From assembly GCA_964545065.1 (NCBI GenBank), contig CAZJEO010000003.1, positions 1 to 55,701 of the forward strand: a DNA stretch of 55,701 nucleotides, in the 5' to 3' direction. The first letter of the stretch is position 1; each line of letters opens with the position of its first letter. Under the pieces are notes generated by a model, which was not told where the DNA came from, ran no database searches, and saw only the letters and a program-made list of their open reading frames with translations. This document shows positions 3,430 through 55,272 of the stretch, piece after piece. The position numbers and the translations under genes were made by a program. Source of the DNA: Candidatus Woesearchaeota archaeon. Lineage in GTDB: Archaea; Nanobdellota; Nanobdellia; Pacearchaeales; GW2011-AR1.

Positions 3430-3954
3430 ATGAAAAGAGGTAAGAGGGGACAAGTTTGGGTAGAGACTGTTATTTACACTTTGATTGCGTTTGTTATGAT
3501 TGGACTTGTGCTTTCGTTTGCTAGACCGAAAATAGAAGAGTTGCAGGACAAGTCAATTATTGAAAAGTCTATTACAATGATGAAAGAAATTGACTCAATA
3601 ATTTTGGATATTGGGATTCCTGGAAATAAGAGACCGGTAGAGATTAGAATCAGAGAAGGAGAATTGAAAATAGATGGTGTTAATGATGAACTTGTTTTTG
3701 AAATGGAAAGTGAATATGCTTATAGTGAGCTAGATAGGGAGATTGTTGATGGAAATTTGATAATCGTTACTGAAAAATCAGGGAGTGCGAATATTGTCAA
3801 AATAACAAGGAGTTATGGAACTTCTTATGACATACAATATCAGGAAACTAATGAAGAAAAAACTCTCAGTAAATCTTCTACTTCATACAGATTATCAATA
3901 GAGAATAAAAGAATAACCGCTAATAAAATAGTAATTAATTTCGATGTGACATGA
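3430..3954 (+). CDS. Pilin-like protein with class III signal
   Basis: MKRGKRG/QVWVETVIYTLIAFVMIGLVLSF has RG/Q followed by a hydrophobic helix. Its stop overlaps the ATPase start (ATGA). Confidence 0.6.
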   Translation: MKRGKRGQVWVETVIYTLIAFVMIGLVLSFARPKIEELQDKSIIEKSITMMKEIDSIILDIGIPGNKRPVEIRIREGELKIDGVNDELVFEMESEYAYSELDREIVDGNLIIVTEKSGSANIVKITRSYGTSYDIQYQETNEEKTLSKSSTSYRLSIENKRITANKIVINFDVT

Positions 3955-5501
3955 TGGAACAAGCAATACTTACTTACCAAAGAGTTGCGATTGATTTTTC
4001 GCCGAAAGTACCTCCCTTGAAAAAGATAAAAGACAAAACAAAGGTTGATGTTAGATATTGTCTTATTTCTCCATTCGCATTTGTGCATATCCATTGGGAC
4101 CCAGAGATCTATGAAATTATTTATGAAATTGAAGAGCCGATTCTTACTGAAGAAGAGATGAAATACAAGGACCAGATATCAGAGGCAATGAGAGATATGA
4201 TAAATTTCTACAAGGTTGTTGGAAGAGAAACAGATTCTCTTCTTGAATATATTGACAAGCGGTTGAAAATTCTTGCTATTGAATTTGGAATTAATTTATC
4301 TTATGAAACATACAAGAAAATATATTATCATCTTTGCCGGGACTTTATTGGGTTTAATGAAATTGAGCCTGTACTAAGAGATTATTTTATAGAGGATATT
4401 GAGTGCAATGGAGTTGATAGTCCGATTTATGTTGTTCATCGAGTATATCGAAATATGAAGACAAACCTTATTTTCAAAAAAGAAGAAAAATTGGAGAGTT
4501 TTGTTGAGAAGCTCGCGCAGAGGTGTGGGAAATATATATCTTATGCTAGCCCGATTCTTGATGGGAGTCTTCCTGATGGTTCGAGGGTGAATGCAACTTA
4601 TACAAGAGATATTACTAGCAAGGGTCCTACATTCACAATCAGGAAGTTTACAAAAAAGCCGTGGACACCGATTCAGTTGATTTCGTTTAAGACCCTGAGT
4701 ATAGAAATGCTGGCTTATCTCTGGTTGGTGGTTCAGTATAAGATGAATATACTTATTACAGGTGGAACAGCTTCGGGAAAAACAACTCTGTTGAATGCCC
4801 TTGCTTTTTTCATCCCTCCTGAAGCTCGTGTAGTAAGTATAGAAGACACGCGTGAATTGAATCTTCCGAGAGAGAACTGGCTTCCAAGTGTGGCTAGGAC
4901 TTCTGCTGCACTTACTGAGAAAAATGATATAACTTTGTTTACTTTGCTGAGAAGTTCATTCAGGCAAAATCCAGATTATGTAATTGTTGGTGAGGTTAGG
5001 GGAAAAGAAGCATCTGTATTGTTTCAGGGAATGGCATCAGGACATTCTTCTATGAGCACTATGCACTCAGATTCAGTAGATACCTTGATAAAAAGATTGG
5101 AGACGCCTCCTATTGAACTTTCCCCCACACTTGTTAATGTTCTCGACTGCGTTTGTATTATGACACATGCGCTTGTGAACAAAAAAGAAACAAGAAAACT
5201 TAGGGAGATAGTTGAGATTGTAAATGTTAATCTTAACGGGATTGCAACTACGAATACGCCTTTTATGTGGAATCCTGCAGAAGATAGTTTTTATTTTAAG
5301 AGGAAAAAAACTGTGATAGAAAAAATTTCAAAGCGGCATGGATTAAGCATGGAAGAATTGGAAATTGAATTTAGAAAAAGAGTTAAACTTATTTACATGC
5401 TGCATCAAAAAAATGTTTCCAAATTTGAAGAGGTTCAGGAAATTGTCAATAGATATTATAAAAAACCTGAATCTGTGTTAAGGGAATTCGGAGTACAGTA
5501 A
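3951..5501 (+). CDS. Type II/IV secretion-family ATPase (archaeal PilB/FlaI-like pilus assembly ATPase)
   Basis: Walker A is GGTASGKTTLLNAL and Walker B / Asp box is DYVIVGEVRGKEA. SMSTMHSDS is a His-box-like segment. Length is 516 aa and the gene is flanked by pilin and platform genes. Confidence 0.9.
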   Translation: MMEQAILTYQRVAIDFSPKVPPLKKIKDKTKVDVRYCLISPFAFVHIHWDPEIYEIIYEIEEPILTEEEMKYKDQISEAMRDMINFYKVVGRETDSLLEYIDKRLKILAIEFGINLSYETYKKIYYHLCRDFIGFNEIEPVLRDYFIEDIECNGVDSPIYVVHRVYRNMKTNLIFKKEEKLESFVEKLAQRCGKYISYASPILDGSLPDGSRVNATYTRDITSKGPTFTIRKFTKKPWTPIQLISFKTLSIEMLAYLWLVVQYKMNILITGGTASGKTTLLNALAFFIPPEARVVSIEDTRELNLPRENWLPSVARTSAALTEKNDITLFTLLRSSFRQNPDYVIVGEVRGKEASVLFQGMASGHSSMSTMHSDSVDTLIKRLETPPIELSPTLVNVLDCVCIMTHALVNKKETRKLREIVEIVNVNLNGIATTNTPFMWNPAEDSFYFKRKKTVIEKISKRHGLSMEELEIEFRKRVKLIYMLHQKNVSKFEEVQEIVNRYYKKPESVLREFGVQ

Positions 5502-8763: not shown

Positions 8764-11700
8764 ATGAAAAGATGCTTGGTAATTATTTGTGTTTTCTTTA
8801 TTTTGATTCTTTCACTTTCGTTTATCTCGGCTGGGTTTTTTTCAGATATTTGGAATAAAATAACAGGGAAGGTTGTAGAGGACTGTGATGACAGCGACGG
8901 GCATTTAGGTTTAGAAGGGAGTTATTATGTGAAGGGAACTGCTTGTGCGGCTAATGGTTGTTTTACAGATTCTTGTGTTGAGGAGGGAGGTTCTGTGTTG
9001 AGGGAATTTTCTTGTAGTCTGGATGAAAGAGTAGTTTATTTGAGATATACTTGTCCTGGGGGAAGTACTTGTTCTGAAGGAGTTTGTGGGGATGTTTGTG
9101 TTGCTGAAACTTGTGCTTCATTGGGGTATGAATGTGGAACTCATGATGATGGATGTGGAGGAAGTTTAGATTGCGATGTTTGTCCTAGTGGAGAAATATG
9201 CTCAAATGGAAAATGTATTGAAGAAGGACAAGGATGTGTGATTTTTTATCTTGATGCTGATGGGGATAGTTATGGTGTGACAGACAATCAGTGTTTAGAA
9301 TCTGCTGCAGGAGATTATACTGCTTCACAATCTGGAGATTGTGATGATTCTGATTTAGAAATTAATCCTTTGGCAGAAGAAGTTTGTGATGATAGTTTAG
9401 ATAATAATTGTGATGGAAATGTTGATGAGGGCTGTGTTGTTGAAGGAGAAGAAGTTCCTGGAGTTGGAGACGAGGAAGTTGTTGAAGGTGCTGAAGAGAT
9501 AACAGAGGGAGATATTGAAGAGGTGCTCGGGGAGACTGAAGGAAGTGGGGCATGTATTCCTGAAACAGAAATCTGTGATGATGAAATAGATAATGATTGT
9601 GATGAATTAGTGGATTATGATGATATGGAAGATTGTTCAAGATGTGAAAGAACAGATACAAGTTGTTATTATGATCTTGAAGGTGAAGCATGTGTTAGTT
9701 GTGCGTCGTTAGAACCTGTTGATTTGAATTGTAATTTTTTTAGGACAAAATTAAAGGCAAGAACTTTTGGATGTGGAGCCGGTAGTTGTGAAGAAAGTGT
9801 ATTACGATCTGTTATTGAGGATTGTGGGTTTGGATGTTCTGAAGATGAAGAAGGAGCTCATTGCATGACTCAAGAAGAATCTGAAGAGACGTCGCTATTT
9901 GTAGAGTTTATTGTAGATATTTTTGTTGCTAGTGAAGAAGCTGAAACAGTTGAAGAAGTTGAAGAAACAATTTCAGCATGTGTTCCTGAAACAGAAATTT
10001 GTGATGATGAAATAGATAATGATTGTGATGAGTTGGTTGATTATGATGATGTTGAAGAATGTGTTGTTGTGGAGGAAGTTGTTGAAGAAGAAATAGAATG
10101 TTTCCCTGAAGTGGAAACCTGTGAGGATGAAATAGATAATGATTGTGATGGAGAGATTGATGAAGTGGGTTGTAGCTCTGTTTATATAATTCAATTTTAT
10201 GATGCTCCTCTTGCAGAAAAAGAGTATGAATTAGAGAATCAGATAAAAGAATTAGAAGCGACTTTGTATATAGCAGAACAAGAACCTGAGGAATCGGGAG
10301 GTGTTTTCCAAACAAGGTCTCTTAATGAGATTTCTAAAGAATTAGAATCTATTAATTTAGAAGAAGAAATGCAAGAACATGAAGAGGTTTTAGAAGATAC
10401 AAGAAATTCTTTTAAAAATAAAATACTCTCAGATAAAAGTATTACTGGTTCTGCTGTTGAAGGAGAAGTAGAAGATATTATAGTGGCAGAGTATAAGTAT
10501 GCTCTTAATGGTATGGCAATTAGATTGACTCCTGAAATGGCTGCTGAAGTTGAGGGGTATAAGGGAGTTAAGAGTGTTAGTAAGAGTATGAAAATGGAAT
10601 TTGCCTTAGATAATTCAGTTCCCTTAATGCAAGCAAATATTGTTTGGATTTATAATAATCAAGATAGACTTTGTAGAGATGAAAAAAATTGTTTAACAGG
10701 TAAAGGTATTAAGGTAGCTATTATAGACTCCGGTATAGACTATACTCATCCTGCTTTTGGTTCTTGCACAAAAGAAGAAATAGATGGTGGTAATTGTGAA
10801 AAAATAGGTTTAGTAAAAACATACGCTTCATCATTTGATGCTCTTGACTTAATTGGTCATGGAACACATGTAGCAGGAATAATAGCTGCTAAAACAGATT
10901 TAGATAGAGATGGTTCTTATTGTGAAGTTGATGAAGGAGAAATCTGTGGAATTGCTCCAGATTCTGAACTTTATATATATCAGCTTTCTGATTCTGATTC
11001 ATTTGGGGAATATGTTGTAGCTTCTGCTATTGATGATGCTGTTAGCCAGGGTGTTGATATAATATCTATAAGTGTGACTTTTTACCCTTCTGTTATGCCA
11101 ATGTTAGATAATCCTGCAAATAAACCTTTATGTGTTTCAGTAGCAAATGCGTTCAATGCTGGTATCTTTGTTGTCGCAGCTGCAGGAAATAGGGGTCCAA
11201 ATAAAAATACTGTTGGGTTTCCTGCAGGCTGTATTAAAACATTTGCGGTAGGTAATTTTGATAATATTCTTGGATTACGTTATGGTGGTGAAAAATTAAT
11301 ACATTGGTCAAGTTCAAGAGGACCTATTAGTTATATAGATCCCAAGAATAATTATGTATTTACTTACCCTAAACCAGACATTGTGGCTCCTGGAAGAGAG
11401 ATATGTTCTGCTAATCCTTTATATATGGGAGAAGAATTTGGTGATAAGACTTGTGTTTCTGGTTTTGAAGATGAGATTAATCGCTATCGATGGGGTACTG
11501 GAACTAGTATGGCAACACCTCATGTTGCTGGAGTTGCTGCTCTTTTAAAACAGGCAAAACCAGATTTAACAGCGTATGAATTATGGGATATTTTAAAGGA
11601 TGGTGCACTTGGAGAAGATGTATTCCCGGGGTTCAAAACTATTTTTGATGAAAATGACCGTGGAGCAGGTTTCCTACATGCTTATGAAGCTTATAATAAA

Positions 11701-17633: not shown

Positions 17634-17692
17634 TGGTTATACTGTCCTTTTATAAGGGTTTTCATTTATAAAAAATTTTCTAAATTGCTAAT

Positions 17693-17702
17693 ATTTATAA
17701 AA
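17693..17702 (+). promoter_or_regulatory. TATA-box candidate (ATATTTATAAA family)
   Basis: atatttataaaa is centred ~25 nt upstream of ATG 17723. Confidence 0.5.
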
Positions 17703-17722
17703 GATGTTTTATTATTGTAGTT

Positions 17723-18172
17723 ATGCAAAAAAGAGGAATGAGTAATCAGACAATTATCATGATGGTTGTTGGGGTGTTAGTGTTGTTAGGAATTATACTT
17801 GGTGTTGTTTTTCTTGGGGGAGAGAAAGAAGCAGAGTCAAATCCTATTGCTGAGCAATGTGAGTCTCAATGTGAAGCTGGAAGTGTTCCTGGATTTTGTT
17901 CAATGCAGAGGGAAGTTGAGGAAGACTTATCTTTAACATGTGATACTCTTGCAACAAATTCACAATATGCAAGTTATGATGTTGAGGCTTGTCCTACAAT
18001 TTCATGCACCAGCCAAGAATCATCTCCTTTGAGTCAAACATGTATTGCATTGGGCGGAGAATGGGAAACTCCTGCTGTTGGAGGAGATTGTGTGCAAGAC
18101 AGCGATAAGATAAAAAGAAAGATAACTACTTCTGATGATGCTCCTGAAGAAGGAAAGATTTGTTGTAGATAA
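17723..18172 (+). CDS. Small Cys-rich pilin-like/secreted protein
   Basis: N-terminus is MQKRG/MSNQTIIMMVVGVLVLLGIILGVVFL, class-III-like. The 149-aa product has 11 Cys. Confidence 0.5.
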   Translation: MQKRGMSNQTIIMMVVGVLVLLGIILGVVFLGGEKEAESNPIAEQCESQCEAGSVPGFCSMQREVEEDLSLTCDTLATNSQYASYDVEACPTISCTSQESSPLSQTCIALGGEWETPAVGGDCVQDSDKIKRKITTSDDAPEEGKICCR

Positions 18173-18217: not shown

Positions 18218-20068
18218 ATGAGGTCAAAAGGAGAATTATTATTTGTCTGTTTGTTATTACTTGTTGTTTTATCATTGAGTAATGTTTCTTCTTCTGCAGT
18301 TTGTTCAATTGAAGCTTCTGAAGCAGATTGTGATGCAATAACAAACGGGAGAGTTGTAATGAGGTTATCTAATTCTGACAATGCTCATGGAGAAATGAAA
18401 ACCCACACTCCAGCAGATTATGAACATGTTTTGTGTTGTAATTTTGGAAGTGGAAGTTCTAATTGTAATAATGGTGGTAAATTAATAGGGTTATCTTCTG
18501 AAACAAATGCTCATGCAGAAATTCCTGACCTTGTTACTCCTAATTATTTAAATGATGTTTGCTATGATGGATTTGGTAATTGTTCTTCAGTAGATGTTGG
18601 AACATCCTGCTCAATTGAGGAGATTGGGGTTTTGCAATTATTTTCGACTACTAATTCCCATATTGGACCCCTTAATCCAGAAGGATATCCTCAAAAGATT
18701 TGCTGTAAGATTGATGAGGATATAACAGATTGTACTCTTGATACTGCTTACTGGAGTTTGGATATTATTGACCCTTTGGCTAATGCGCTAACTGCTGGAG
18801 ATAATCCTATTGTGGAAGACACAGACGTTTACCTTGTTGTAGATGGAACTGATTGTGGTACTAATCCAATTACATTTGAAATTTTTGAAGATACCTTAGG
18901 AAGTAATGAAACTCGACAACCAAGTCCGCAAAGTTTATCATTTTCATCAGACAGGGCACTGACTACATGGTCAACTAAATGGGTTAATGTTTCTGGAGCA
19001 GACCCTAAATATTATTTTAATGGAACAACTTTATCAACGATAACAAGTGATGCTCCTTTATTAGAAGTCAAGCAATCAGAGTTTGATTGTGCTGTTGATG
19101 GTATTACAGAACGTTGTGCTGATTATACTATTTTTGGCGGGGAGCCCACTGGAGAATGTAAGGCAGATACGTGTAGATTTGCTGTGAGGGATGTTGAGGC
19201 TACATTTCCTGAAATAGAATGTGGAACTGCTTATGATTGTGCATGTGGCTGGGATGCCATAGGAACATGTGTGCCTCAAGCGACTTATAAGGGTATTTGT
19301 GGTGATGAAAGCTGTACACCAGGGAATGAAGATTGTTCTTCATGCCCAGAGGATTGTGGAACTTGTCCTCCTGTAGATTGTGGGAATGGGGATTGTGCAC
19401 CTAATGAAAATTGTAATACCTGTGAATTAGATTGTGGAACTTGTCCTATTCCTGAATGTGGTGATGGTCTATGTGCTGAGAATGAAGAATGTGGGAATAG
19501 TGATGTTGCCCCAGAATGTAATACTGATTGTGGTCCCTGTACTCCAACAGATGTTTGTCCTGATGGAAGCTGTACAGGAACTGAAACTTGTAGTACTTGC
19601 TCAAGTGATTGTGGGACATGCCCACCAATATCTTGTCCTGATGATTATTGTGCGCCTAATGAAGATTGTTTCCTTTGTGCCAACGATTGTGGAACTTGTC
19701 CAGATGTAGATTGTGGTGATGACCTTTCCTATTGTGCTCCTAATGAGGATTGTAATTCTTGCCAAGAAGATTGTGGAGTTTGTATTGGAGATTTAATGGG
19801 AAGGTGTTCTTTTACAGAATCAACAACAGATAACTGTGATGATAACTTCTTAGACTATACCTGGACTGGAGACTGGACAGGAGTTGTTCCTAATTCTGAA
19901 AATCCTAATTATCCTCTTTATGAAAAATGTGAAGCGGGGGGATCAGCACAAAGGCCATGTCCTTCCCAAATTCAACTTCCTTTCTTTGGTTTGTTTGGTG
20001 TACTTGTAACTTTAATAGTAATTGCATTAATTTATATTTCATTGATTTTTAAGGAAAAGAAAAAATAA
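18218..20068 (+). CDS. Cys-rich surface protein with tandem DCGTCP modules and C-terminal membrane anchor
   Basis: It has an N-terminal signal and three L-S-x3-N-[AS]-H modules. About 7 tandem modules of ~20 aa follow (C..NE.C..C..DCGTCP). The C-terminus LPFFGLFGVLVTLIVIALIYISLIFKEKKK is a motif + TM + basic tail. Confidence 0.6.
   Translation: MRSKGELLFVCLLLLVVLSLSNVSSSAVCSIEASEADCDAITNGRVVMRLSNSDNAHGEMKTHTPADYEHVLCCNFGSGSSNCNNGGKLIGLSSETNAHAEIPDLVTPNYLNDVCYDGFGNCSSVDVGTSCSIEEIGVLQLFSTTNSHIGPLNPEGYPQKICCKIDEDITDCTLDTAYWSLDIIDPLANALTAGDNPIVEDTDVYLVVDGTDCGTNPITFEIFEDTLGSNETRQPSPQSLSFSSDRALTTWSTKWVNVSGADPKYYFNGTTLSTITSDAPLLEVKQSEFDCAVDGITERCADYTIFGGEPTGECKADTCRFAVRDVEATFPEIECGTAYDCACGWDAIGTCVPQATYKGICGDESCTPGNEDCSSCPEDCGTCPPVDCGNGDCAPNENCNTCELDCGTCPIPECGDGLCAENEECGNSDVAPECNTDCGPCTPTDVCPDGSCTGTETCSTCSSDCGTCPPISCPDDYCAPNEDCFLCANDCGTCPDVDCGDDLSYCAPNEDCNSCQEDCGVCIGDLMGRCSFTESTTDNCDDNFLDYTWTGDWTGVVPNSENPNYPLYEKCEAGGSAQRPCPSQIQLPFFGLFGVLVTLIVIALIYISLIFKEKKK
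19290..19790 (+). repeat. Tandem coding repeats (~60-66 nt units) encoding C-x-NE-x-C-x2-C-x2-DCG[TV]CP modules
   Basis: Repeated gattgtggaacttgtcc strings occur at ~19356, 19431 and 19687, with the variants gattgtgggacatgccc at ~19609 and gattgtggagtttgta at ~19771. Confidence 0.8.
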
Positions 20069-20082
20069 GATAGAAGAGATAA

Positions 20083-20093
20083 TATTTATAAAA
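20083..20093 (+). promoter_or_regulatory. TATA-box candidate (ATATTTATAAA family)
   Basis: tatttataaaa is centred ~26 nt upstream of ATG 20114. Confidence 0.5.
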
Positions 20094-20113
20094 GATATTT
20101 TGTTATAGTTAAT

Positions 20114-22786
20114 ATGAAAAAAAGAGGGCAGGGGTTGTTTTTTTTATTGTGTGTAGTTTTAATTCTTAATTTTATTTCTGCTAGTTTTGAGATTGGAGAA
20201 CCTAACCATTCTATTGATAAAATGTATGGTCCAGGGAATACATTAAGGGGATGGATAAATATAAGCTTAGATGAAGAACCATCAAATTCTTTTTTTGAAA
20301 GCTCTGGAGGAGATATTATAACTTTGTTGAAATTGTTAGAAGGGGATAGTAATTTTGATTATGATTGTGATATTTCGGGGTGTAATTGGAATTATGAAGC
20401 CACAAATGAAGAGAATGAAAAAATAATTGATTTGGAAGAGGGAGGATTTGCTTTGGTTGGATTTAAGATTCCGAGTGGGATAGTTGAAAAGATTACTAGT
20501 TTTTCAGTAGGTATTTTAAGTGATGCTGCTGAATCAGAAGGTCCGCAATTGTCAATAGATATTCGTAATAACGGGGAAGAGGAATGGAAAGCACACAAGG
20601 CATCTACTAATTTTGGAGCGGTGCGAAAGGGTTGTTACGTAAGTCCTGAAGGAAAAACAGGGGTGATAAATCGTGTTTTTTGCGAGAGAATTGAGTTGCC
20701 TGCTTCTCCAAGAGTTGTAATAGGAGCAAATTTGATTCAGGCAGAGGGAGTAACAGAAGACGTTGAATTTCAAATGAGCATTGGAACTTTTGATGAAGTG
20801 GAAGGAAAATGTGATATAACTGCTTCTGAAAGCAAAGATTATGAATGTATTGCAAAAGATGGTCAAAAAGATTTTATGATTCATGAACCAAAGAACTATT
20901 CTGTTTGTATACAAACAAAAGCTACAACTGACGAAGATGATGATAAATATAAAATAAATTATGAGGAAAGTCAACCGTGCGGTTTTTCAGGAAGTTTTAG
21001 TGGGGAATATAGTTTTGATTTTGATGTATTTGCAAAGCCAGGAATGTACGACGCTGTTGGAAGTTTTACATTAGATAATGCAGAACTAAGTGCTTCTGGA
21101 AGTGAGATTGATGATGTAGAAGAATATATTTGGGATCATCTTTCTGATAATTATAATGCTAATTGTACAAATGGTTGTATAATTCCGTTGAGAATTAATG
21201 CCATAGTTGCGCAAAGGATTACAATCTCAAATCCCTCTCTCACATATAAAGCAGGAATATCTCCAACATTGGAAAATTTATATGACTTGACAGAAACGGC
21301 TCCGAAGATAACTGCAGACATGCAAAAACTGAAAATAGATGCGGGGGAGTTCAAAGTTCCAGATGCATATGATACATATCTTATTTCCCTTTTTGATTTT
21401 AATGGAGATAAGATTTTTGATGAAGAGATTTCTGTTGAGAAAGTTCCTATAATTAATAGATTGCTTCCAATGGAAACTGCTGTTAATTTTTCTACTCATT
21501 TTAAGATTTTTGTTTCTTCTGAGAAGAATTTAACTTCTTACAAATGGGAATTTGATGATGGGACTAACATGACAACCACTAAAGACGAAGTTACTCATAC
21601 TTATAAAGAGATGGGGCAATATGACTTAAAAGTGACTGTTACTGATATTGATGGTAGGCTCTCGAGTGAAATTTTCAATGTTACTGTTGGGTCTGCTGAA
21701 ATAGTAGTAGGACGGATTTTAGAAGAGAAAAAGACTAGTTTTGAACAGATTAAAGCGCAGTTGGAAAATATGTCTTCTTTTGAGAAAGGGCTTGTGGAAA
21801 ATATTCTTCAATTAAATAATACTGAAGTTGAACTTAGTAAACTGGTGGCTTTGAGTGCTAGTGCATCAACAGAAGAAGACTATCGGACTATTTTAGAAGG
21901 TTTGTTGAAGATTGATTTGCCTCTTGAAATTTTCCCGAGTACATCAAAAAGTTCTTCTATATTTTATCCTGAGAAAAGCAGCATTAATCCAGAAGTCCTT
22001 GCAGATATTGCGGGGGATAGTTATGATAGTTCGAAAAAAAATGCTTATATCGACGCTGTTTTGGCTTGGAATATGGAGAATGTGGACATAAATCTTATCT
22101 ACAATGAAACAACTGCTGCATATGCGACTCACAATGAGCCGCTCTTGAATGTTTTTGAAATTGATGTGACAAAAAAAACAGGTGCTGAGGGCGACCCTTA
22201 TATTATTTTGAAAAATATGACTGGGTTAACATTTGATGGTCTTGCTTTGATAGATGAGAAATCTGGGTATGTTTATTTTCAATTGATTGGACAATCAAAG
22301 AAGTTTGTGTTTGCTACTACTGAAAATGTTGATTTTATTGATTTGCCGCTTTTTGTTGCTCCAGCTATTAGTGAGCTATCTCTTAGTGATTTTACTTGGA
22401 GCCCTCTTGGTGATGGTGGTAAATTAAAGCGATGGGCTCTTTTTGCTTTGATAGTTGTTTTACTGATTATAATTGGGATTATTTTTTGGGTTGTTTTACA
22501 GACATGGTATAGGAGAAAATATGAAGATTATTTGTTCAAAAATAAGAATAATCTTTTTAACCTTCTTAATTGGATTGAGAATGCGAAGAAGCGTGGGTTG
22601 AATGAAGGTGAAATTAAGAATACATTAAAGAAAAAGGGTTGGACCTCTGAGCAGTTGAGATATGCTACTCGGAAGCATGCTGGGAAGAGAACTGGGATGG
22701 CTGAGATTTCTAGGAAAAGAAAGAAAAATGCTTTGCAGGGAGCGGTGGCTTTGCAGAAAAAAATTCCTAAAAAGCAGAAGACGTAA
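20114..22786 (+). CDS. Large surface protein with PKD domain, single C-terminal TM and basic cytoplasmic tail
   Basis: The signal is MKKRGQGLFFLLCVVLILNFISA. The PKD-like segment is YKWEFDDGTNMTTTKDEVTHTYKEMGQYDLKVTVTDIDG. The TM is WALFALIVVLLIIIGIIFWVVL, followed by ~110 aa rich in K/R. Confidence 0.6.
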   Translation: MKKRGQGLFFLLCVVLILNFISASFEIGEPNHSIDKMYGPGNTLRGWINISLDEEPSNSFFESSGGDIITLLKLLEGDSNFDYDCDISGCNWNYEATNEENEKIIDLEEGGFALVGFKIPSGIVEKITSFSVGILSDAAESEGPQLSIDIRNNGEEEWKAHKASTNFGAVRKGCYVSPEGKTGVINRVFCERIELPASPRVVIGANLIQAEGVTEDVEFQMSIGTFDEVEGKCDITASESKDYECIAKDGQKDFMIHEPKNYSVCIQTKATTDEDDDKYKINYEESQPCGFSGSFSGEYSFDFDVFAKPGMYDAVGSFTLDNAELSASGSEIDDVEEYIWDHLSDNYNANCTNGCIIPLRINAIVAQRITISNPSLTYKAGISPTLENLYDLTETAPKITADMQKLKIDAGEFKVPDAYDTYLISLFDFNGDKIFDEEISVEKVPIINRLLPMETAVNFSTHFKIFVSSEKNLTSYKWEFDDGTNMTTTKDEVTHTYKEMGQYDLKVTVTDIDGRLSSEIFNVTVGSAEIVVGRILEEKKTSFEQIKAQLENMSSFEKGLVENILQLNNTEVELSKLVALSASASTEEDYRTILEGLLKIDLPLEIFPSTSKSSSIFYPEKSSINPEVLADIAGDSYDSSKKNAYIDAVLAWNMENVDINLIYNETTAAYATHNEPLLNVFEIDVTKKTGAEGDPYIILKNMTGLTFDGLALIDEKSGYVYFQLIGQSKKFVFATTENVDFIDLPLFVAPAISELSLSDFTWSPLGDGGKLKRWALFALIVVLLIIIGIIFWVVLQTWYRRKYEDYLFKNKNNLFNLLNWIENAKKRGLNEGEIKNTLKKKGWTSEQLRYATRKHAGKRTGMAEISRKRKKNALQGAVALQKKIPKKQKT

Positions 22787-27171: not shown

Positions 27172-28104
27172 TTAGAAGATTAAATAACTAAGAATCATTC
27201 CCAATAAAATCCCTGCTGTTATGAAAGGCATTGCAGGATAGAATTTATTTTTATCTGAAAAAAAGGACAAGTAACCTAAACCAAGAAGTGCTCCTGAGAT
27301 TACAAATATTGCTGGGAAAAATCCTCCAATGAAGCTTTTCAATCCAAAAGGCATTATCACTGTAGTTGTCTTGAATACAACTCCTGCGGCTATCAAAGGG
27401 AATACGACATCGCCACCTCCAAGAATTGCAACATTGATTTTTATTTTTTTCTTTTCTTTTGATTTGGATTTTCTTAATTTTTTTATTTTCATTCTTACTT
27501 TTTTTGAAATATGCGGAATCATAAAGCCTCCAAAAGCTTTTACCTTATTGATTTGGAATTTTGCCATTTTTTGCATGATTCCTGAATGCCAAACTGCCCA
27601 TATATCATAAACAGAAATTAGTGCTAATAGAATGAGGATTGTCCAGAAACTTAAGATTGGAACAAAGATGGCTGCAATACCAGGGTAAACCAAAAGTTCT
27701 GTTGCATTATGAACTATGAAATTTCTTTTGAAGACTTTGAAAAATGCTAAGGGAAGTGCAATGGCTAGGGCAATCCATGCAGCATAAGTAATTTTAATTG
27801 GAAAAAATGACGTAATCGTAATTCCTAATGCTAGAGTAATCACCAAAAAAAACCATACCCTTAGAATAAATTCTGCTTTTATTTTCGTTAATAAAAAAAG
27901 AAGTGCTATTGCAATTACAAATGCAAAAAGTATTGCATAGAAAAAATTTCTGTAATCTGAAGCTTTTTCAACCTCGGGTGTTTCTAATCCAAACGGAAGT
28001 TCATTTTTTTCTCGAACATAATGGTCGATAACATAAAGTCCGATAAACTGTGTTAAAAGAAACATTATTAGAATAATTGCAGTAATTTTTATATTGTGTT
28101 TCAT
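27172..28104 (-). CDS. Presenilin/signal-peptide-peptidase-like GxGD intramembrane aspartyl protease
   Basis: It is polytopic. YD is at ISVYDIW (D167) and GxGD at AILGGGDVV (D232), separated by a K-rich loop. A PAL-like FYPAMPF lies near the C-terminus. The spacing resembles the archaeal presenilin homologue PSH. Confidence 0.7.
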   Translation of the reverse strand: MKHNIKITAIILIMFLLTQFIGLYVIDHYVREKNELPFGLETPEVEKASDYRNFFYAILFAFVIAIALLFLLTKIKAEFILRVWFFLVITLALGITITSFFPIKITYAAWIALAIALPLAFFKVFKRNFIVHNATELLVYPGIAAIFVPILSFWTILILLALISVYDIWAVWHSGIMQKMAKFQINKVKAFGGFMIPHISKKVRMKIKKLRKSKSKEKKKIKINVAILGGGDVVFPLIAAGVVFKTTTVIMPFGLKSFIGGFFPAIFVISGALLGLGYLSFFSDKNKFYPAMPFITAGILLGMILSYLIF

Positions 28105-28193
28105 TTGAAAACAACCTGGCGGTTTTTTTCGATTTTCCCTCTAATTGCGGAAAGGTGGCATCTTTTCATTGCCTCCGCCGGATACCACATAAA
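28105..28193 (-). repeat. Conserved 5'-leader block, copy 1 of 2 (upstream of presenilin-like gene)
   Basis: The core 28134-28190 is 51/57 identical (hand alignment, no gaps) to 43021-43077. It lies between the upstream gene stop and ATG 28104. On the minus strand the arms GUGGUAUC/GAUGCCAC can pair. Confidence 0.8.
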
Positions 28194-28282
28194 ATTTATT
28201 TTCACCATCTTTATTAAAAATAAGAAAAAGAAGTTTTTAAAGTTGTTTAGATTGATTATGAGAGAATTTAATATTTAGAAAA

Positions 28283-29413
28283 TTATACTGTTCCTGGACC
28301 GTATGGTTTTATTTCCCACCCATATACATGTCTAACATCATCCCACCAGCAGAATAGAATACAAGTTTTGTCTTGGCACGTAGCTTCTCTCCATGAACCA
28401 CCTAGTATTCCTGCATTAGCGGGGTCTGCATTAGGATATTCATGAGACCAAAATGTCCAGGTTCCTGATCCTGCAGCAGTACTTCTAGCAGTAAATATGT
28501 TCTCTCTTAATTTTGTAGAACAAGCCCTTGTTCCATAACCTATCCCGGACTCTTCTAAAAGCTCATAAGGAGGGAAACAACCATACCACCATTCACCGCT
28601 ATCTCTATCATATTTAGTAGTACATCCTTTTCCAGAACTACCCTCACAATAACCTATGCCATTGCATGCTTTAGATTCTCCACTTCCACAAGGAGTTCCT
28701 CTTTGGGCTATATTAGTAATTATACTACATGAAGATGGGACACATTCTCCCAGATCATCACAATAATTAGTCACATCCTGATAATCTCTACAAACACTGT
28801 CAGCTGTATCACAGCTCCGAGTTCCACAAGATGTGCCTGCTTGTGCAATTTCTGCTCCAATACAAGTTGTTCCACCACATGCAATTGTTCCTTCAGTCAT
28901 ACAAACATCACCGCCGCAAGGGTCTCCTGCGCCATCAACACAACTAAAATCACCATCATCTATTGCATTCTGCAGATTTTTGCCAACACTATTCACAGTT
29001 ACTTCAACTTCTGTTGCAGGATGTCCTTGAGAAGGAGATGAAGATGATGAGGATATTGTTCCAGTGCCCTTGAAATAATTTTGGTCTATTGCATCTTGCA
29101 TAGTTACATCATAACTATTGATTGTAAGAATAATTTCACTTGCAAGATGATAAGCATCTGGGAATTCTGCTTCTGAAAGACAAGTTGTTGGAGCCACAGT
29201 TTCTTTAAGCCATTCATTATTTATTGCATCCTGCAAAGTTACATCACAACTATTTATTGTAAGGATAATTTCATTTGATGTATGCCCCCCGCCTGTTGCA
29301 TTTATAAAAGCATAAACTCCAACTACAGTGATTAATAGAATTCCGATTATGATTAAAGTATAAAGAAACCTCTTTGATATATGTCTTTTAGATTTCTTGC
29401 CACTCTTTTTCAT
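28283..29413 (-). CDS. Membrane-anchored secreted protein with tandem repeats and Cys/Trp-rich C-terminal domain
   Basis: The N-terminal anchor is FLYTLIIIGILLITVVGVYAF. Repeats are EIILTINS.DVT.QDAI (x2) plus one degenerate copy. The C-terminal ~230 aa is Cys-rich. Confidence 0.55.
   Translation of the reverse strand: MKKSGKKSKRHISKRFLYTLIIIGILLITVVGVYAFINATGGGHTSNEIILTINSCDVTLQDAINNEWLKETVAPTTCLSEAEFPDAYHLASEIILTINSYDVTMQDAIDQNYFKGTGTISSSSSSPSQGHPATEVEVTVNSVGKNLQNAIDDGDFSCVDGAGDPCGGDVCMTEGTIACGGTTCIGAEIAQAGTSCGTRSCDTADSVCRDYQDVTNYCDDLGECVPSSCSIITNIAQRGTPCGSGESKACNGIGYCEGSSGKGCTTKYDRDSGEWWYGCFPPYELLEESGIGYGTRACSTKLRENIFTARSTAAGSGTWTFWSHEYPNADPANAGILGGSWREATCQDKTCILFCWWDDVRHVYGWEIKPYGPGTV
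29086..29278 (-). repeat. Intragenic ~57-nt direct repeats (two close copies, ~135 nt apart)
   Basis: Compare attgcatcttgcatagttacatcataactattgattgtaagaataatttca (29088-) with attgcatcctgcaaagttacatcacaactatttattgtaaggataatttca (29222-). Confidence 0.8.
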
Positions 29414-41797: not shown

Positions 41798-42424
41798 TTA
41801 AATTCTAATCTCCCAAATACACAATCTTTCCATGAATAAATTCTCACATCCGATTTCTTTTGCATGATATCCCAGTTTTTCAAAATCAATCTTTTCTGCT
41901 AAGGAACTTGTGATTAAAAAAATAATTCCGTTTTTTTCTAAATGTGATTTTGCTTGGTTGAGAAAACGGAGAATTATTTCGTTTCCTTTTTTTCCACCTG
42001 TTGTTGCTTGCTGGGAATCTTTTGGTTCTCTTGAGTCCTCAGGAAGATAAGGGGGGTTGAAGATTATGGTATCAAATTTTCCTGAAATTTTTTCGAAGAG
42101 ATTTGAGTGAACGCAATTGAATCCGCGAGGACACCCCTTGTTTTCCTCGCGCTCCTTCCTCGAATCACTGAAGGGCGATTTCCCAACTGCCTTCGCTGGA
42201 AATCGCATATTCTGACAATGTTTTACTGCTTCTGAATCTATGTCGCATGAAAAAATATTTTGTTTTTTTATTCCTAAACTAGAAGATGTTTGCAAATGTA
42301 TTCCAGAGCCTGCTCCAATTTCAAGGAATTTTAAATCTGGATTTTTCTCTAGAAGTTCTGGTATTTTTTCCTTGAGAATTCTGGACATTAAATATGAATC
42401 TTCTGCTGGTTGGTAGATGGGCAT
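41798..42424 (-). CDS. NPPY-motif methyltransferase (HemK/PrmC/Mtq2-like)
   Basis: The SAM motif is FLEIGAGSGI and the catalytic motif is IIFNPPYLP. Length is 208 aa. Confidence 0.75.
   Translation of the reverse strand: MPIYQPAEDSYLMSRILKEKIPELLEKNPDLKFLEIGAGSGIHLQTSSSLGIKKQNIFSCDIDSEAVKHCQNMRFPAKAVGKSPFSDSRKEREENKGCPRGFNCVHSNLFEKISGKFDTIIFNPPYLPEDSREPKDSQQATTGGKKGNEIILRFLNQAKSHLEKNGIIFLITSSLAEKIDFEKLGYHAKEIGCENLFMERLCIWEIRI
42124..42206. repeat. GC-rich double-hairpin insert inside the NPPY methyltransferase gene
   Basis: CGCGAGGA (42124-42131) and TCCTCGCG (42144-42151) form a perfect 8-bp stem. GCGATTTCC (42175-42183) and GGAAATCGC (42198-42206) form a perfect 9-bp stem. The segment encodes ...FPAKAVGKSPFSDSRKEREENKGCPRG... 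between the SAM motif and NPPY. Confidence 0.7.
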
Positions 42425-42425
42425 T

Positions 42426-42989
42426 TTAACTAAACAAATTATTAAAGAAACTGATTAATTCGTCTTTGAAAAGAAAGATTGTTACGAGAATTCCGACTAG
42501 AAGGAGAAGGAGAAATCCTAGAAGGATTATGATTGTTTTGCCGCTTTGCTTTGGTGGTTGGCCGTAACCTGAAACTCGCTGTGGAGCTTGGCCTGGTTGT
42601 TGAGGTTGAATAAGCTGTTGTTGGGCTTGTTGCTGGGGGACTTGGGAGAGAGGGACTTGTTGCTGCATTGCTTGTTGAGGTTGCACCTGTGCAGGTTGTT
42701 GAGGGGATAATTGTTGACCTGGTGCGAGCATTTGAGCACTCACCTGTGGCGGAGGTTGAGGTTGTTTAGATTTCTTTTGTTTTTTTCCTTTTTTCGCAGG
42801 TTCTTGAACTTGTTGTGGTTGAGTTTGCTGTGCTTGAGCCACAAAACCTGATTCATTAATAGACTTGGCAGCTTCTGAGATTTCTTCTTTTTTATAGCCT
42901 GCGTTATAAAGAGTCATCATTGCTTTTTTCAAAGATTCGCCTCTTGTAAGAGCGGATTTTAATGCTTCTAAGATTGCTTCATTTACCAT
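42426..42989 (-). CDS. Q/P-rich low-complexity protein with C-terminal TM anchor
   Basis: It has an N-terminal ~60-aa globular part and a ~90-aa Q/P-rich segment. The C-terminal TM is IIILLGFLLLLLVGILVTIFLF. Its stop lies 1 nt from the downstream methyltransferase start. Confidence 0.55.
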   Translation of the reverse strand: MVNEAILEALKSALTRGESLKKAMMTLYNAGYKKEEISEAAKSINESGFVAQAQQTQPQQVQEPAKKGKKQKKSKQPQPPPQVSAQMLAPGQQLSPQQPAQVQPQQAMQQQVPLSQVPQQQAQQQLIQPQQPGQAPQRVSGYGQPPKQSGKTIIILLGFLLLLLVGILVTIFLFKDELISFFNNLFS

Positions 42990-43080
42990 CGTAAGACACC
43001 TACGGTTTCTTGACGTTCAATTTCCCTCTCGTTGCGGATGTGTGGCATCTTTTCATTGCCTCCGACGGATACCACATAGA
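42990..43080 (-). repeat. Conserved 5'-leader block, copy 2 of 2
   Basis: The core 43021-43077 is 51/57 identical to 28134-28190. It lies immediately upstream of ATG 42989. Confidence 0.8.
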
Positions 43081-43177
43081 TTTCCTTTTTAATCATAATT
43101 AGAATAGGATTTGTGAATTTAAAAATTATGGGGTTAAGAATAATAATGTTTAAAAAGAATTTCGTCTTAATTCAAAA

Positions 43178-43399
43178 ATGGAAGAAGATAAAAAAAGTTT
43201 GGTTGGGAAAGTGTCTAAAGGATTAAAAATTTTTAAAAATGATATGTTGTATGATATAAGAGCTGTGAAGATTCTTTTTTGTCCGTGGAAATATTTTCCC
43301 GAAGGAAATTTTTGGGATAGAAAAATTGAAATTGATGGGGGCACTTCAGAAAGAGGGTATATAATGAGAATCTCACAATATAGAGTGGGTGTAAGGTAG
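43178..43399 (+). CDS. Hypothetical small protein (73 aa), doubtful
   Basis: It is an ATG ORF with GTTTAAAAAG ~25 nt upstream. No motif is recognisable, and an equally long antisense ORF overlaps it. Confidence 0.3.
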   Translation: MEEDKKSLVGKVSKGLKIFKNDMLYDIRAVKILFCPWKYFPEGNFWDRKIEIDGGTSERGYIMRISQYRVGVR

Positions 43400-43433
43400 G
43401 ACAAGTTATTCTTGGTTCAAGTTTTGAATAAAA

Positions 43434-53652: not shown

Positions 53653-53838
53653 ACGACTATCTCATCTGTAATTTATTATTTTTGAGAAGTCAGTTGTAGT
53701 TCTAATAAAACCGTTTCGTTAAATCGAAACAACAGCCAATAGTTAGGAGTTCGTGTGAAGTGTATTATTTTCTTATAAATAATATGCGCAATCGAAATTC
53801 GTGTCGTTTATCGACGAGGAATTCATGACATTGTTTAA

Positions 53839-55272
53839 ATCCAGTTGATCCTGCTGGCGGCTGCGGCTATCTGGTTTGCGTTTAGCCATGCAAGTCTGTC
53901 GAAAGACGGCGAACTGCTCAGTAACACGTAGCTAATCTACCCTTAAGTCAAGGATACCCTCGGGAAACTGAGGCTAATACTTGATAAGAGATTTACCCTG
54001 GAAAGATTTATCTCTGAAACTCGCGCTTAAGGATGAGGCTGCGGCGGATTAGGTTGTTGGCGGGGTAATAGCCCACCAAGCCTGTGATCCGTAGGGGCTC
54101 TTAGCGGAGAAGCCCCGAGAGGGAATCTGAGACACTATTCCCAGCCCTACGGGGTGCAGCAGTTAGGAATCTTCTACAATGCGCGCAAGCGTGATAGAGT
54201 GAGCCAGAGTGTTTTCCAATTTGGAAGACTTTTATGGAATGTAAAAAGTTCCACGAATAAGGACTGGGTAAGACTAGTGCCAGCCGCCGCGGTAATACTA
54301 GCGGTCCAAGTCGCAGCCATTTTTATTGGGTCTAAAACATCCGTAGCTTGCTTAATAAGTTCTCTGTGAAATCCTGTCTCTCAAGGATGGGGCGAGCAAG
54401 GAATACTACTAAGCTAGAGACTGGAAGACGTAAGGAGTATGGTCAAAGTAGTGGTAAAATACTTTAATCTTGATCAGACTAACAATAGCGAAGGCACCTT
54501 ACGAGGACAGTTCTGACAGTAAAGGATGAAGGCTAGGGGCGCAAAACGGATTAGATACCCGTGTAGTCCTAGCAGTAAACACTGCACACTAAACATTAGT
54601 ACCTCCTCGAGAGGTATTAGTGCTGCAGGGAAGCCGAAGAGTGTGCTACCTGGGAAGTATAGTCGCAAGGCCGAAACTTAAAGGAATTGGCGGGGAGACA
54701 CTACAACGGGTGACGCGTGCGGTTCAATTAGATTATACACCGTGAACCTCACCAGGAGCGACAGCAGGATGAAGGTCAGTCTGAAGGGCTTACCTGACAC
54801 GCTGAGAGGAGTCGCAAGGCCGACGTCAGCCTGTGCCGTGAGGTGACCTGTTAAATCAGGTAACAGGCAAGACCCACATGTATATTTACTACTGAACTAT
54901 ATACAGATTGCCTTGGTAACAAGGATGAAAGTGTGGGCTACGTTAGGTGAGTACAGCCCGAATCCCCTGGGCAACACGCGCGCGTCAATGGTGGATACAA
55001 CGAGATGCGACTCTGAAAGGAGGAGCTAATCCCTTAAAGTCCATCTCAGTCCAGATTGAGGTTTGTAACCCAGCCTCATGACGCTGGAATCTGTAGTAAT
55101 CGTTTGTTATCAACGAACGGTGAATATGTCCCTGTCTCTTGCACACACTGCCCGTCATACCAACCGAGTTGTGTTATGGTGAAACTCTCTTTTGAGGAGA
55201 ACCTTGACACGATGAGGCAGGTCAAGTCGTCACAAGGTATCTGTAGGGGAACCTGCAGATGGATCACCTCCT
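53839..55272 (+). rRNA. rrs: 16S (SSU) ribosomal RNA, archaeal, ~1434 nt
   Basis: The 5' end is AATCCAGTTGATCCTGCTGGCGG. GTGCCAGCCGCCGCGGTAATAC lies at 54277-54298, and ATTAGATACCCGTGTAGTCC and AAAGGAATTGGCGGGG are present. GCACACACTGCCCGTCA lies at 55141-55157. The 3' end is GGATCACCTCCT at 55261-55272. Confidence 0.95.

Follow-up and report, generated by a model that had tools for sequence, protein, structure and literature searches.

The DNA examined here, a 55,701-nucleotide stretch hereafter called the window, is part of a 97-kb metagenomic scaffold of a DPANN-type archaeon. The GC content of the window is 34%, tRNA-Ala comes after a 16S rRNA gene of archaeal type (53838-55272), and its nearest protein relatives bear the depositor labels Pacearchaeota or Nanoarchaeota. 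Two minus-strand genes of the window are preceded by a shared block that proved to be part of a short structured element, the subject of this report. The first encodes a 310-aa signal-peptide-peptidase (presenilin-like; PF06550) with its ATG at 28104, and the second a 187-aa Q/P-rich, C-terminally anchored protein without a Pfam match, with its ATG at 42989. An initial annotation made from the sequence alone had placed two 57-nt blocks directly 5′ of these start codons and had counted 51 identical positions between them. Both statements held on realignment (28134-28190 against 43021-43077, ungapped), and a repeat finder extended the match to 69 nt at 86% identity (family D6). A 34-nt core (GTGGTATCCGNCGGAGGCAATGAAAAGATGCCAC) occurred exactly twice in the window, both times on the minus strand, and was reproduced in none of 100 dinucleotide shuffles.

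The shared block corresponds to only the 5′ two-thirds of an element of ~85 nt, whose 3′ part in copies 1 and 2 is a second covarying hairpin located 0-2 nt 5′ of the ATG. The search for additional copies that the initial annotation had recommended yielded a third copy in the window, a fourth on its scaffold, and homologues in Pacearchaeota, Woesearchaeota and Nanoarchaeota (Table 1). Copy 3 resides in the open reading frame (ORF) of the release-factor methyltransferase HemK2/MTQ2 (41798-42424, minus strand), where it encodes ..MRFPAKAVGKSPFSDSRKEREENKGCPR.. and adds 27-28 residues between HCQN and GFNC. The fourth copy, detected with a covariance model, is situated 0.7 kb beyond the window start in antisense orientation between co-directional genes, and the density on the window scaffold is thus 4 copies in ~65 kb. 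A possible decayed copy in a T2SSE-type ATPase ORF carries AGGCAAUGA and an 8-bp P3-like hairpin.

Table 1. Coordinates of element copies, their helices, predicted upstream ORFs (uORFs) and related loci. Positions without a prefix refer to the window; bit scores are from covariance models R1 and R2.
Feature	Position	Strand	Description
Copy 1	28107-28190	-	5′ leader of the signal-peptide-peptidase (presenilin-like) gene; 65.3 bits (R1), 78.1 bits (R2)
Copy 1, P1	28188-28181 / 28162-28155		18-nt loop 28180-28163
Copy 1, linker	28154-28131		
Copy 1, P3	28130-28121 / 28116-28107		
uORF across copy 1 (predicted)	28101-28208	-	MVKINFMWYPAEAMKRCHLSAIRGKIEKNRQVVFK and stop, or from the second AUG at 28190
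Copy 2	42989-43077	-	5′ leader of the Q/P-rich gene; 50.7 bits (R1), 69.6 bits (R2)
Copy 2, P1	43075-43068 / 43049-43042		
Copy 2, P3	43011-43004 / 43000-42993		
uORF across copy 2 (predicted)	42983-43096	-	other frame; MIKKEIYVVSVGGNEKMPHIRNEREIERQETVGVLRW and stop; upstream ATG start
Copy 3	42125-42208	-	84-nt in-frame insertion in the HemK2/MTQ2 ORF; 73.3 bits, E 2e-15 (R1)
Copy 3, P1	42206-42199 / 42182-42175		GCGAUUUC/GAAAUCGC
Possible decayed copy (uncertain)	4171-4243	+	in T2SSE-type ATPase ORF 3951-5501; 15.6 bits, E 0.08 (R2); 8.1 bits, E 1.9 (R1)
tRNA-Arg(GCG) with element as intron	L110:790-953	-	intron of 89 nt
GINS51 locus, filled	L004:1650-1900		
GINS51 locus, filled	L039:2780-3030		
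GINS51 locus, filled	L138:4640-4900		
GINS51 locus, empty	L140:9880-10060		
GINS51 locus, empty	L142:8440-8580		

Relatives of the element were sought with the invariant 18-mer GGAGGCAATGAAAAGATG in collections of genomes and of metagenomes, and covariance models were built from 9 copies (R1) and from 19 copies (R2). Apart from the additional copies on the window scaffold, the models detected more copies, diverged in sequence, at the related loci. Besides chance bacterial matches, the 18-mer scans gave a coherent set of homologues only in contigs of the three archaeal lineages named above. Three scans of viral contigs, made with the core and two other conserved 19-21-mers, returned no true match, and a protein search with a 58-aa concatenated peptide returned no further host-protein candidates. 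The Rfam scan that had been proposed at the outset matched no family: Rfam 15 gave nothing at gathering thresholds for the window, copy 1 or the L048 copy, and chance-level matches only at E values up to 10. A literature search found no publication with the core sequence and none on structured RNAs in these DPANN lineages. To our knowledge, no such element has previously been described in this lineage; the kind of element is already known.

From 5′ to 3′, the element consists of hairpin P1 (8 bp) with a conserved 16-18-nt loop (..CGGAGGCAAUGAAAAG..), a linker formed by a pyrimidine/purine stretch (CCUUCAGNGCUUNGAGGAA), and hairpin P3 (9-12 bp). An extra hairpin extends it in some cases to ~118 nt. 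It has no coding capacity of its own, its GC content is 46-56% as compared with 34% for the host, and its ends (GYGGYAUC.. and ..CCUCGC) show inverted complementarity over 3-4 nt only. The pairing of GUGGUAUC with GAUGCCAC, including one G-U pair, had been predicted from the window alone. This helix is P1, in which the two strands close an 18-nt loop and contain one U-G pair, and its existence was confirmed by covariation. Diverged copies have P1 stems with full compensation (GCGAUUUC/GAAAUCGC in copy 3 relative to copies 1 and 2, and elsewhere GCGACAUC/GAUGUUGC, CUGCAUC/GAUGCAG and CGCUUC/GAAGCG), and P3 varies in sequence from copy to copy yet always pairs (GCGAGGAAA/UUUCCUCGC, CGAGAGAA/UUCUCUCG, GAAAAAAACC/GGUUGUUUUC).

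Covariation analysis, which had been advised once more than five copies were in hand, was run on 19-20 distinct copies with slid helices and 500 shuffles as controls, and both helices were supported. P1 was 98-99% paired, with five of its eight pairs altered on both sides, and P3 was ~90% paired, with 10 of 11 pairs altered on both sides. Taken together, 93% of the cells of the two helices were paired, compared with 40-55% in the slid controls, 15 of 19 pairs showed two-sided changes, and none of the 500 shuffles came up to these values. RNAalifold independently predicted the same two helices. A further helix in the linker, P2 (CCUUC/GAAGG), was 81% paired with weak covariation and is tentative. 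Single-sequence folding gave unremarkable z-scores (-0.4 to -1.3), so that the support for the structure comes from covariation. The stem cells contained 23 G-U and 7 A-C combinations; therefore the strand shown is the folding one, either as RNA or as single-stranded DNA. An H-type pseudoknot between GGAGG of the loop and CCUUC after P1 was rejected on account of its zero-length linker geometry and lack of covariation, and the spacing of the GA/GA motifs in the P1 loop was judged by eye to be unsuitable for a K-turn or K-loop.

The gain and loss of copies was assessed in relatives with conserved gene order. In the 20.5-kb contig L129 the genes are arranged as in the window, with RNase J, a small protein and HemK2 followed by aCPSF1, the peptidase and TrmB, and a covariance-model search of these 20.5 kb detected no copy at all. 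L129 therefore provides empty sites for all three window copies. By this comparison, copy 1 was inserted between the ancestral Shine-Dalgarno (SD) sequence GGTGA and the start codon of the peptidase, copy 2 directly before the ATG of the Q/P-rich gene, where the L129 spacer of 43 nt is without a copy, and copy 3 as 84 nt within HemK2. The empty HemK2 site of L129 (10126-10200) reads TTGCGATTT, then, across the junction, AATTGC, and encodes ..LRFNC.. where most homologues have ..LGFNC... Because this site matches GCGATTT, the first 7 nt of the copy-3 element subfamily, it may be the footprint of an 84-nt in-frame deletion between short repeats by which the element was lost. The syntenic relatives L134, L135 and L136 also had no copy. 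Copy 1 was found at 96% identity in the orthologous locus of L073, with the sequence upstream of it at 61%, and in L137 the Q/P-rich gene is preceded by a degenerate orthologous copy that scores 21 bits where copy 2 scores 70.

Two other differences in gene content were noted beside these copies. In the window, ~350 nt of extra spacer (43078-43433), including a 73-aa plus-strand ORF (43178-43399), separate RNase J from copy 2. A 376-aa Cys-rich, secreted-looking protein without a Pfam match is encoded between aCPSF1 and the peptidase (28283-29413, minus strand), and is absent from this place in L129 and L134.

Among ~2,500 homologues of HemK2, those listed were mostly 179-184 aa long, and within the matches listed the insert occurred only in P0002, a protein 71% identical to that of the window with the insert at the same site; the inserts in the protein alignment measured 27-29 aa. 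The corresponding DNA (L128) contains a decayed element copy at this HemK2 site (35 bits, against 72 for copy 3). In an AlphaFold2 model of the window HemK2, residues 63-106, among them those of the insert, had a predicted local confidence (pLDDT) below 50, and the rest of the fold was confident. The model weakly supports placement of the insert in a tolerated loop, weakly because only two sequences cover this segment in the alignment.

A mobile intergenic repeat was one of the possibilities raised initially, and the distribution of copies across genomes supported and widened it to in-frame copies in coding sequences (CDS), antisense copies and a copy in a tRNA intron. Sense copies in 5′ leaders, with P3 0-2 nt before the ATG, comprised copies 1 and 2, L004b (SRP54), L023b (PheRS beta), L110a and L123 (L37Ae). 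In-frame sense copies were found in five unrelated protein genes, namely HemK2, a Trm5-like methyltransferase (L048 and L070; insert opposite a gap in PDB 5yac), a NOL1/NOP2/Sun methyltransferase (L025; insert opposite a gap in 3m6u), a DUF167 protein (L062) and, near its N-terminus, a RIO/Bud32-type kinase (L024). Antisense copies between co-directional genes were present in L004a, L039, L138 and L011 as well as beyond the window start. In L110, a tRNA-Arg(GCG) gene has an 89-nt intron at the canonical position, essentially all of which is an antisense copy; the gene was found by ARAGORN only with introns allowed and is missed at default settings. A further copy, on the opposite strand, is immediately adjacent to the 3′ end of tRNA-Phe. 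L004, L023 and L110 each contain 2 copies within ≤8 kb.

These placements did not bear out the cis-regulatory leader or attenuator of two genes that had been proposed. The host genes are unrelated, orientation is inconsistent, L129 is without all three copies, and Rfam offered no match. Copies elsewhere and in other orientations, which the initial annotation had itself named as evidence against a regulatory role, were indeed found. No constant sense position in the 5′ untranslated region (UTR) was observed, as copies occur in CDS, in antisense and in an intron, and no coherent downstream pathway or regulon emerged: the peptidase, the Q/P-rich protein, PheRS alpha and beta, SRP54, L37Ae and GINS51 have no common function. 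A conserved secondary structure with covariation, as in a riboswitch or regulatory leader, is present, and fits the mobile-element interpretation as well. T-box-like sensing of Phe was considered, prompted by copies before pheS and pheT, the copy beside tRNA-Phe and a UUC in the linker, and was dropped since the remaining hosts are unrelated and the UUC lacks conservation, being replaced by AUC and GUC in copy 2 and L024.

Each of the five independent in-CDS insertions keeps the reading frame and leaves it open, in L048 and L070 by means of compensating indels. The orthologous copies of L048 and L070 are 90% identical, compared with 75% and 68% for their flanks, and are read in different frames (VRYQSEAMKRC.. 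and GVVSVGGNEKMPPF..), with a 1-nt indel in the P3 loop restoring the register. Since the frames differ while the nucleotides are ~90% identical, and since the AUG of the uORF is absent from most family members (L004a, L011, L024, L034, L070 and others), no peptide is conserved. That the frame is merely kept open argues that the in-CDS copies are translated and not spliced out. These findings, together with the covarying stems, support the earlier suggestion of an element at the RNA or DNA level rather than a selected peptide.

The uORFs reported for copies 1 and 2 exist as described, including the AUGA overlap in copy 1, but encode no conserved peptide and look instead like a form of coupling that makes the insertion tolerable. 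The uORF of copy 1 begins at or just before the element, with the old SD GGTGA just upstream, and it terminates in a UGA that overlaps the AUG of the main ORF. The ORFs that cross the element in copy 2 and L004b end 7 nt into the main ORF, and at the three filled GINS51 loci the uORFs, which are 46, 57 and 49 codons long, have their stops at positions +4, +4 and +14 relative to the real AUG; L110a and L123 are without this pattern. Copies in leaders are thus probably tolerated through translational coupling, as judged from the arrangement of these frames.

Several features indicate exchange between copies, by gene conversion or re-insertion. Two subfamilies co-exist in the window genome and in L004, one with GUGGUAUC and an 18-nt loop and the other with GCGAUUUC and a shorter loop. 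The linkers of L039 and L023a, which belong to the same metagenome-assembled genome (MAG), both contain an extra hairpin of 33 nt that is missing from their respective orthologues in other genomes, L004a and L111, and nucleotide conservation of the copies points the same way. Partial second loop copies (..CGGAGGCAAAGAGAAG.. at L025:400-440 and ..CGTCGGAGGCAATTTAAA.. at L011:1865-1890) adjoin full copies and suggest that part of the element was duplicated locally or that an insertion was aborted. On the window scaffold, one strand bears all four copies regardless of gene direction, as are those in L004 and in L023, while L110 has one copy per strand; this is suggestive of a strand-biased mechanism, and no more.

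At the level of sequence comparison, the element is established as a dispersed, structured, non-coding repeat that has been copied to numerous unrelated sites, with close relatives differing by gain or loss of copies and with tolerance of the copies in contexts of very different kinds. The interpretation we favor, with a probability of about 0.7, is that it constitutes a family of non-autonomous elements, dispersed and probably mobile, in DPANN archaea, which would resemble selfish DNA and not a shared regulator of two genes. According to this model, the surviving copies would be those that a compact genome tolerates and that spare the host gene. An insertion in a leader would separate the promoter or SD from the start codon, and a read-through ORF, usually ending on the main AUG, would keep expression by coupling. 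In CDS, the element would sit in frame in protein loops and would probably be translated as a hydrophilic insert of ~28 aa. Other copies would be accommodated in antisense orientation in intergenic spacers or in the tRNA intron, which is presumably spliced out. The hairpins and conserved loop would be recognised on one strand by the mobilising machinery, as single-stranded DNA or RNA, and copies within a genome may homogenise by gene conversion or re-insertion. Given such mobility and homogenisation, copies 1 and 2 would be mere passengers, carried in the 5′ UTR of the peptidase gene and in that of the Q/P-rich gene.

Several observations weigh against this model. Pfam annotation of the ~62 kb of the scaffold that were viewed, where many genes have no Pfam match, revealed no transposase, integrase or reverse transcriptase. 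Terminal inverted repeats (TIRs) do not exceed 3-4 nt, and a test for direct repeats in the flanks found none in most copies and no short duplication of fixed length; flank duplications of 30-35 nt were present at two loci only, GINS51 (L004a, L039, L138) and L023a/L111. In 11 of the 23 copies P3 is followed by an ATG at a distance of 0-2 nt, which could reflect a role in translation start; such an ATG is present even where no gene follows. Finally, some orthologous copies are as conserved as the flanking CDS or more so (L048/L070), which is unexpected for a neutral relic and needs either gene conversion or selection in situ. No parent insertion sequence (IS) was present at any examined locus.

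The filled GINS51 loci have the order first duplicate (32 nt, equal to codons 1-11), antisense element, 9-nt inverted copy, new SD and real gene, and the empty sites appear leaderless. The 32-nt duplicates that flank the element are identical within each of the three genomes, the genomes differ at 5-6 of the 32 sites, and the 9-nt inverted copy covaries with the duplicates (CGAAGCUGC/GCAGCUUCG vs UGAUGCUGC/ACAGCAUCA). In L023a and L111, the last 9 codons and the stop of the upstream gene are repeated after the element; both keep a 9-codon ORF, and the duplicates have diverged from each other. A target duplication at copy 2 is ambiguous, as its 5′ flank resembles the gene start (13/19) and also the 5′ flanks of other copies, and it is absent in the orthologous L137. 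Parts of these patterns could be explained by any one of three processes, namely gene conversion, repeated cycles of excision and re-insertion, and selection acting on an RNA helix. It is conceivable, and no better than a tentative proposal, that the family represents a new type of archaeal non-autonomous element with a folded single-stranded intermediate (RNA or single-stranded DNA) and ~32-nt staggered target duplications, domesticated as a regulator at loci such as GINS51. There, a leaderless uORF formed by the 32-nt duplicate of the gene start would read through the element and re-initiate at the real AUG, and the covarying 9-bp helix and the two duplicates kept identical would control re-initiation.

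The position of P3 next to start codons is one argument for a much less likely explanation, in which the element is a cis-acting RNA module used by the host and mobility accounts only for its distribution. A conserved DPANN RNA-binding protein or the ribosome would bind the module and set initiation, with GGAGG in the loop and GAGG in the linker acting as SD-like sequences that P3 bridges to the AUG. Both motifs are complementary to 16S rRNA because its 3′ end reads ..GAUCACCUCCU. The retention of the peptidase gene after copy 1 entered between the old SD and the ATG, the conserved loop and covarying stems, and the excess conservation of the L048/L070 copies would all be in keeping with such a module. 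It is difficult to reconcile, however, with intact antisense copies (L004a, L039, L011, L132c and L138), with copies in CDS and in a tRNA intron, and with the unrelated downstream genes. Moreover, L004b is without GAGG, the same genes in syntenic relatives do without the element, and copies in some lineages have decayed.

Two improbable explanations draw on the L110 and GINS51 copies, respectively. The first regards the element as a mobile intron-like sequence, excised by the tRNA-splicing endonuclease at a bulge-helix-bulge and spread by intron transposition. ARAGORN indeed takes the L110 copy as a canonical tRNA intron, and there is a precedent for similar introns at different tRNA sites (PMC4090602). 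This copy, however, is antisense to the G-U-bearing strand, the maintenance of an open frame in all five CDS insertions fits translation and not splicing, and no bulge-helix-bulge was seen at the L004a junctions, which like the other junctions were inspected by eye only. The second, about equally improbable, postulates an independent small-RNA gene with a conserved scaffold and a variable 3′ tail that pairs with targets, the tail at GINS51 being the 32 nt antisense to the first codons. The 32 nt after P3 in L004, L039 and L138 are indeed the exact antisense of the GINS51 start, their within-genome identity despite between-genome differences and the covarying 9-nt inverted copy are as this explanation would have it, and TATA-like stretches lie upstream of several copies. 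Against it, the 3′ flank of most copies is a sense gene start or CDS, no consistent promoter or terminator was found, the L023a/L111 duplicates have diverged, and the data also fit a target duplication homogenised by gene conversion. Least probable is a conserved micro-protein or leader peptide (MWYP[AS]EAMKRCH..) acting as such or as an attenuator, for which the uORFs of copies 1 and 2 and the ATGA overlap of one of them would speak, but whose start codon is missing from most family members, whose stop positions vary, whose sequence is altered by the covariation of P1 (W..DGYH to Q..FRCR on the other strand, with similar changes on this strand), and whose frame differs between the orthologues L048 and L070.

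Other features of the window and of syntenic contigs were noted in passing. A 48-nt block, 85% identical between 17689-17736 and 20080-20127 (TAATATTTATAAAAGAT..ATG..AAAAAAGAGG), lies upstream of each of two genes separated by 2.4 kb; this promoter- or leader-like duplicate is unrelated to the element. Tandem Cys-rich modules (CxxC-type, units of 64-87 nt) at 9532-10182 and 19325-19805 belong to very large PKD/S8-type surface proteins. In L134 (6364-7146) and L135 (6598-7380), DPANN contigs syntenic with the window, a 260-aa protein with Pfam matches to bacterial Sigma70 region 2 and region 4 is encoded beside the proteasome alpha gene; a protein of the sigma-70 type would not be expected in an archaeon.

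DPANN genomes are among the smallest and most compact cellular genomes, and their repeats are little known. Here a structured mini-element has colonised essential genes in frame, including those for release-factor and tRNA/rRNA methyltransferases and a KEOPS-type kinase, as well as translation leaders and a tRNA intron. For annotation, it accounts for odd inserts of 27-30 aa, for small ORFs that are spurious, for long leaders and for tRNA introns of excessive length in such MAGs. The combination of covarying hairpins, no TIRs and occasional target duplications of ~32 nt points to an uncharacterised mechanism of mobilisation, and the covariance model may serve to trace lineages, as a marker, and to identify the enzyme through phylogenetic profiling.

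Among known systems, integron attC sites, REP/REPIN sequences and the ends of IS200/IS605 elements did not fit, as P1 and P3 differ and the element has neither a GTAG/CGTC head nor R/L boxes. Mycobacterial interspersed repetitive units (MIRUs), reportedly described by Supply and co-workers in 1997, are small intergenic elements in operons with short ORFs that overlap flanking stop and start codons and so bring about translational coupling. The uORFs across copies 1 and 2, L004b and the GINS51 copies would behave alike; MIRUs differ in being tandem-repeat-like and in one orientation, and are not known for covarying hairpins or CDS insertions. In Thermoproteales, near-identical short tRNA introns occur at different positions in the RNA genes of one genome, and transposition has been proposed (PMC4090602). 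These introns are a partial analogue in that one copy of the present element is a tRNA-Arg intron, whereas most copies lie in mRNA leaders or in CDS, where they are apparently translated, and the intron copy is antisense.

[quoted passage not shown] A TIR-based census has indicated a high density of MITEs in one Woesearchaeal genome (PMC11602168). Like MITEs, including those of Sulfolobus and Haloquadratum, the present element is small (<~500 bp), non-coding, patchy in distribution, rich in GC and structure, and present in several dispersed copies, and elements of both kinds can fuse in frame with host ORFs and alter leaders. It differs in having no TIR beyond GCG(A)..(U)CGC, no short target duplication of fixed length and no parent IS, and the excess of G-U pairs on one strand suggests a single-stranded intermediate, unlike MITEs. 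RPEs are found in frame within many unrelated genes, and in non-coding DNA too (Ogata et al. 2000 in PMC10969869). Both are short dispersed repeats with stable predicted hairpins in a small compact genome that enter unrelated genes in frame with an open ORF, apparently in tolerated loops (here the low-confidence segment of HemK2), that occur in intergenic DNA and RNA genes as well, and that have no known transposase. Indeed, the copies described above include in-frame insertions absent from homologues together with copies in non-coding DNA and RNA genes. The present element differs from RPEs in its archaeal host, in its length (~85 nt, against ~100-150 nt), in its two unlike hairpins with a conserved loop in place of one long palindrome, in orthologous copies that are read in different frames with no conserved peptide, and in 30-35-nt flank duplications at some loci; the two apparently share no sequence relation. 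Without TIRs, short duplications of fixed length or an apparent sequence relation to RPEs, the element is therefore classed as one that would work in the manner of MITEs and RPEs, and not as a member of either.

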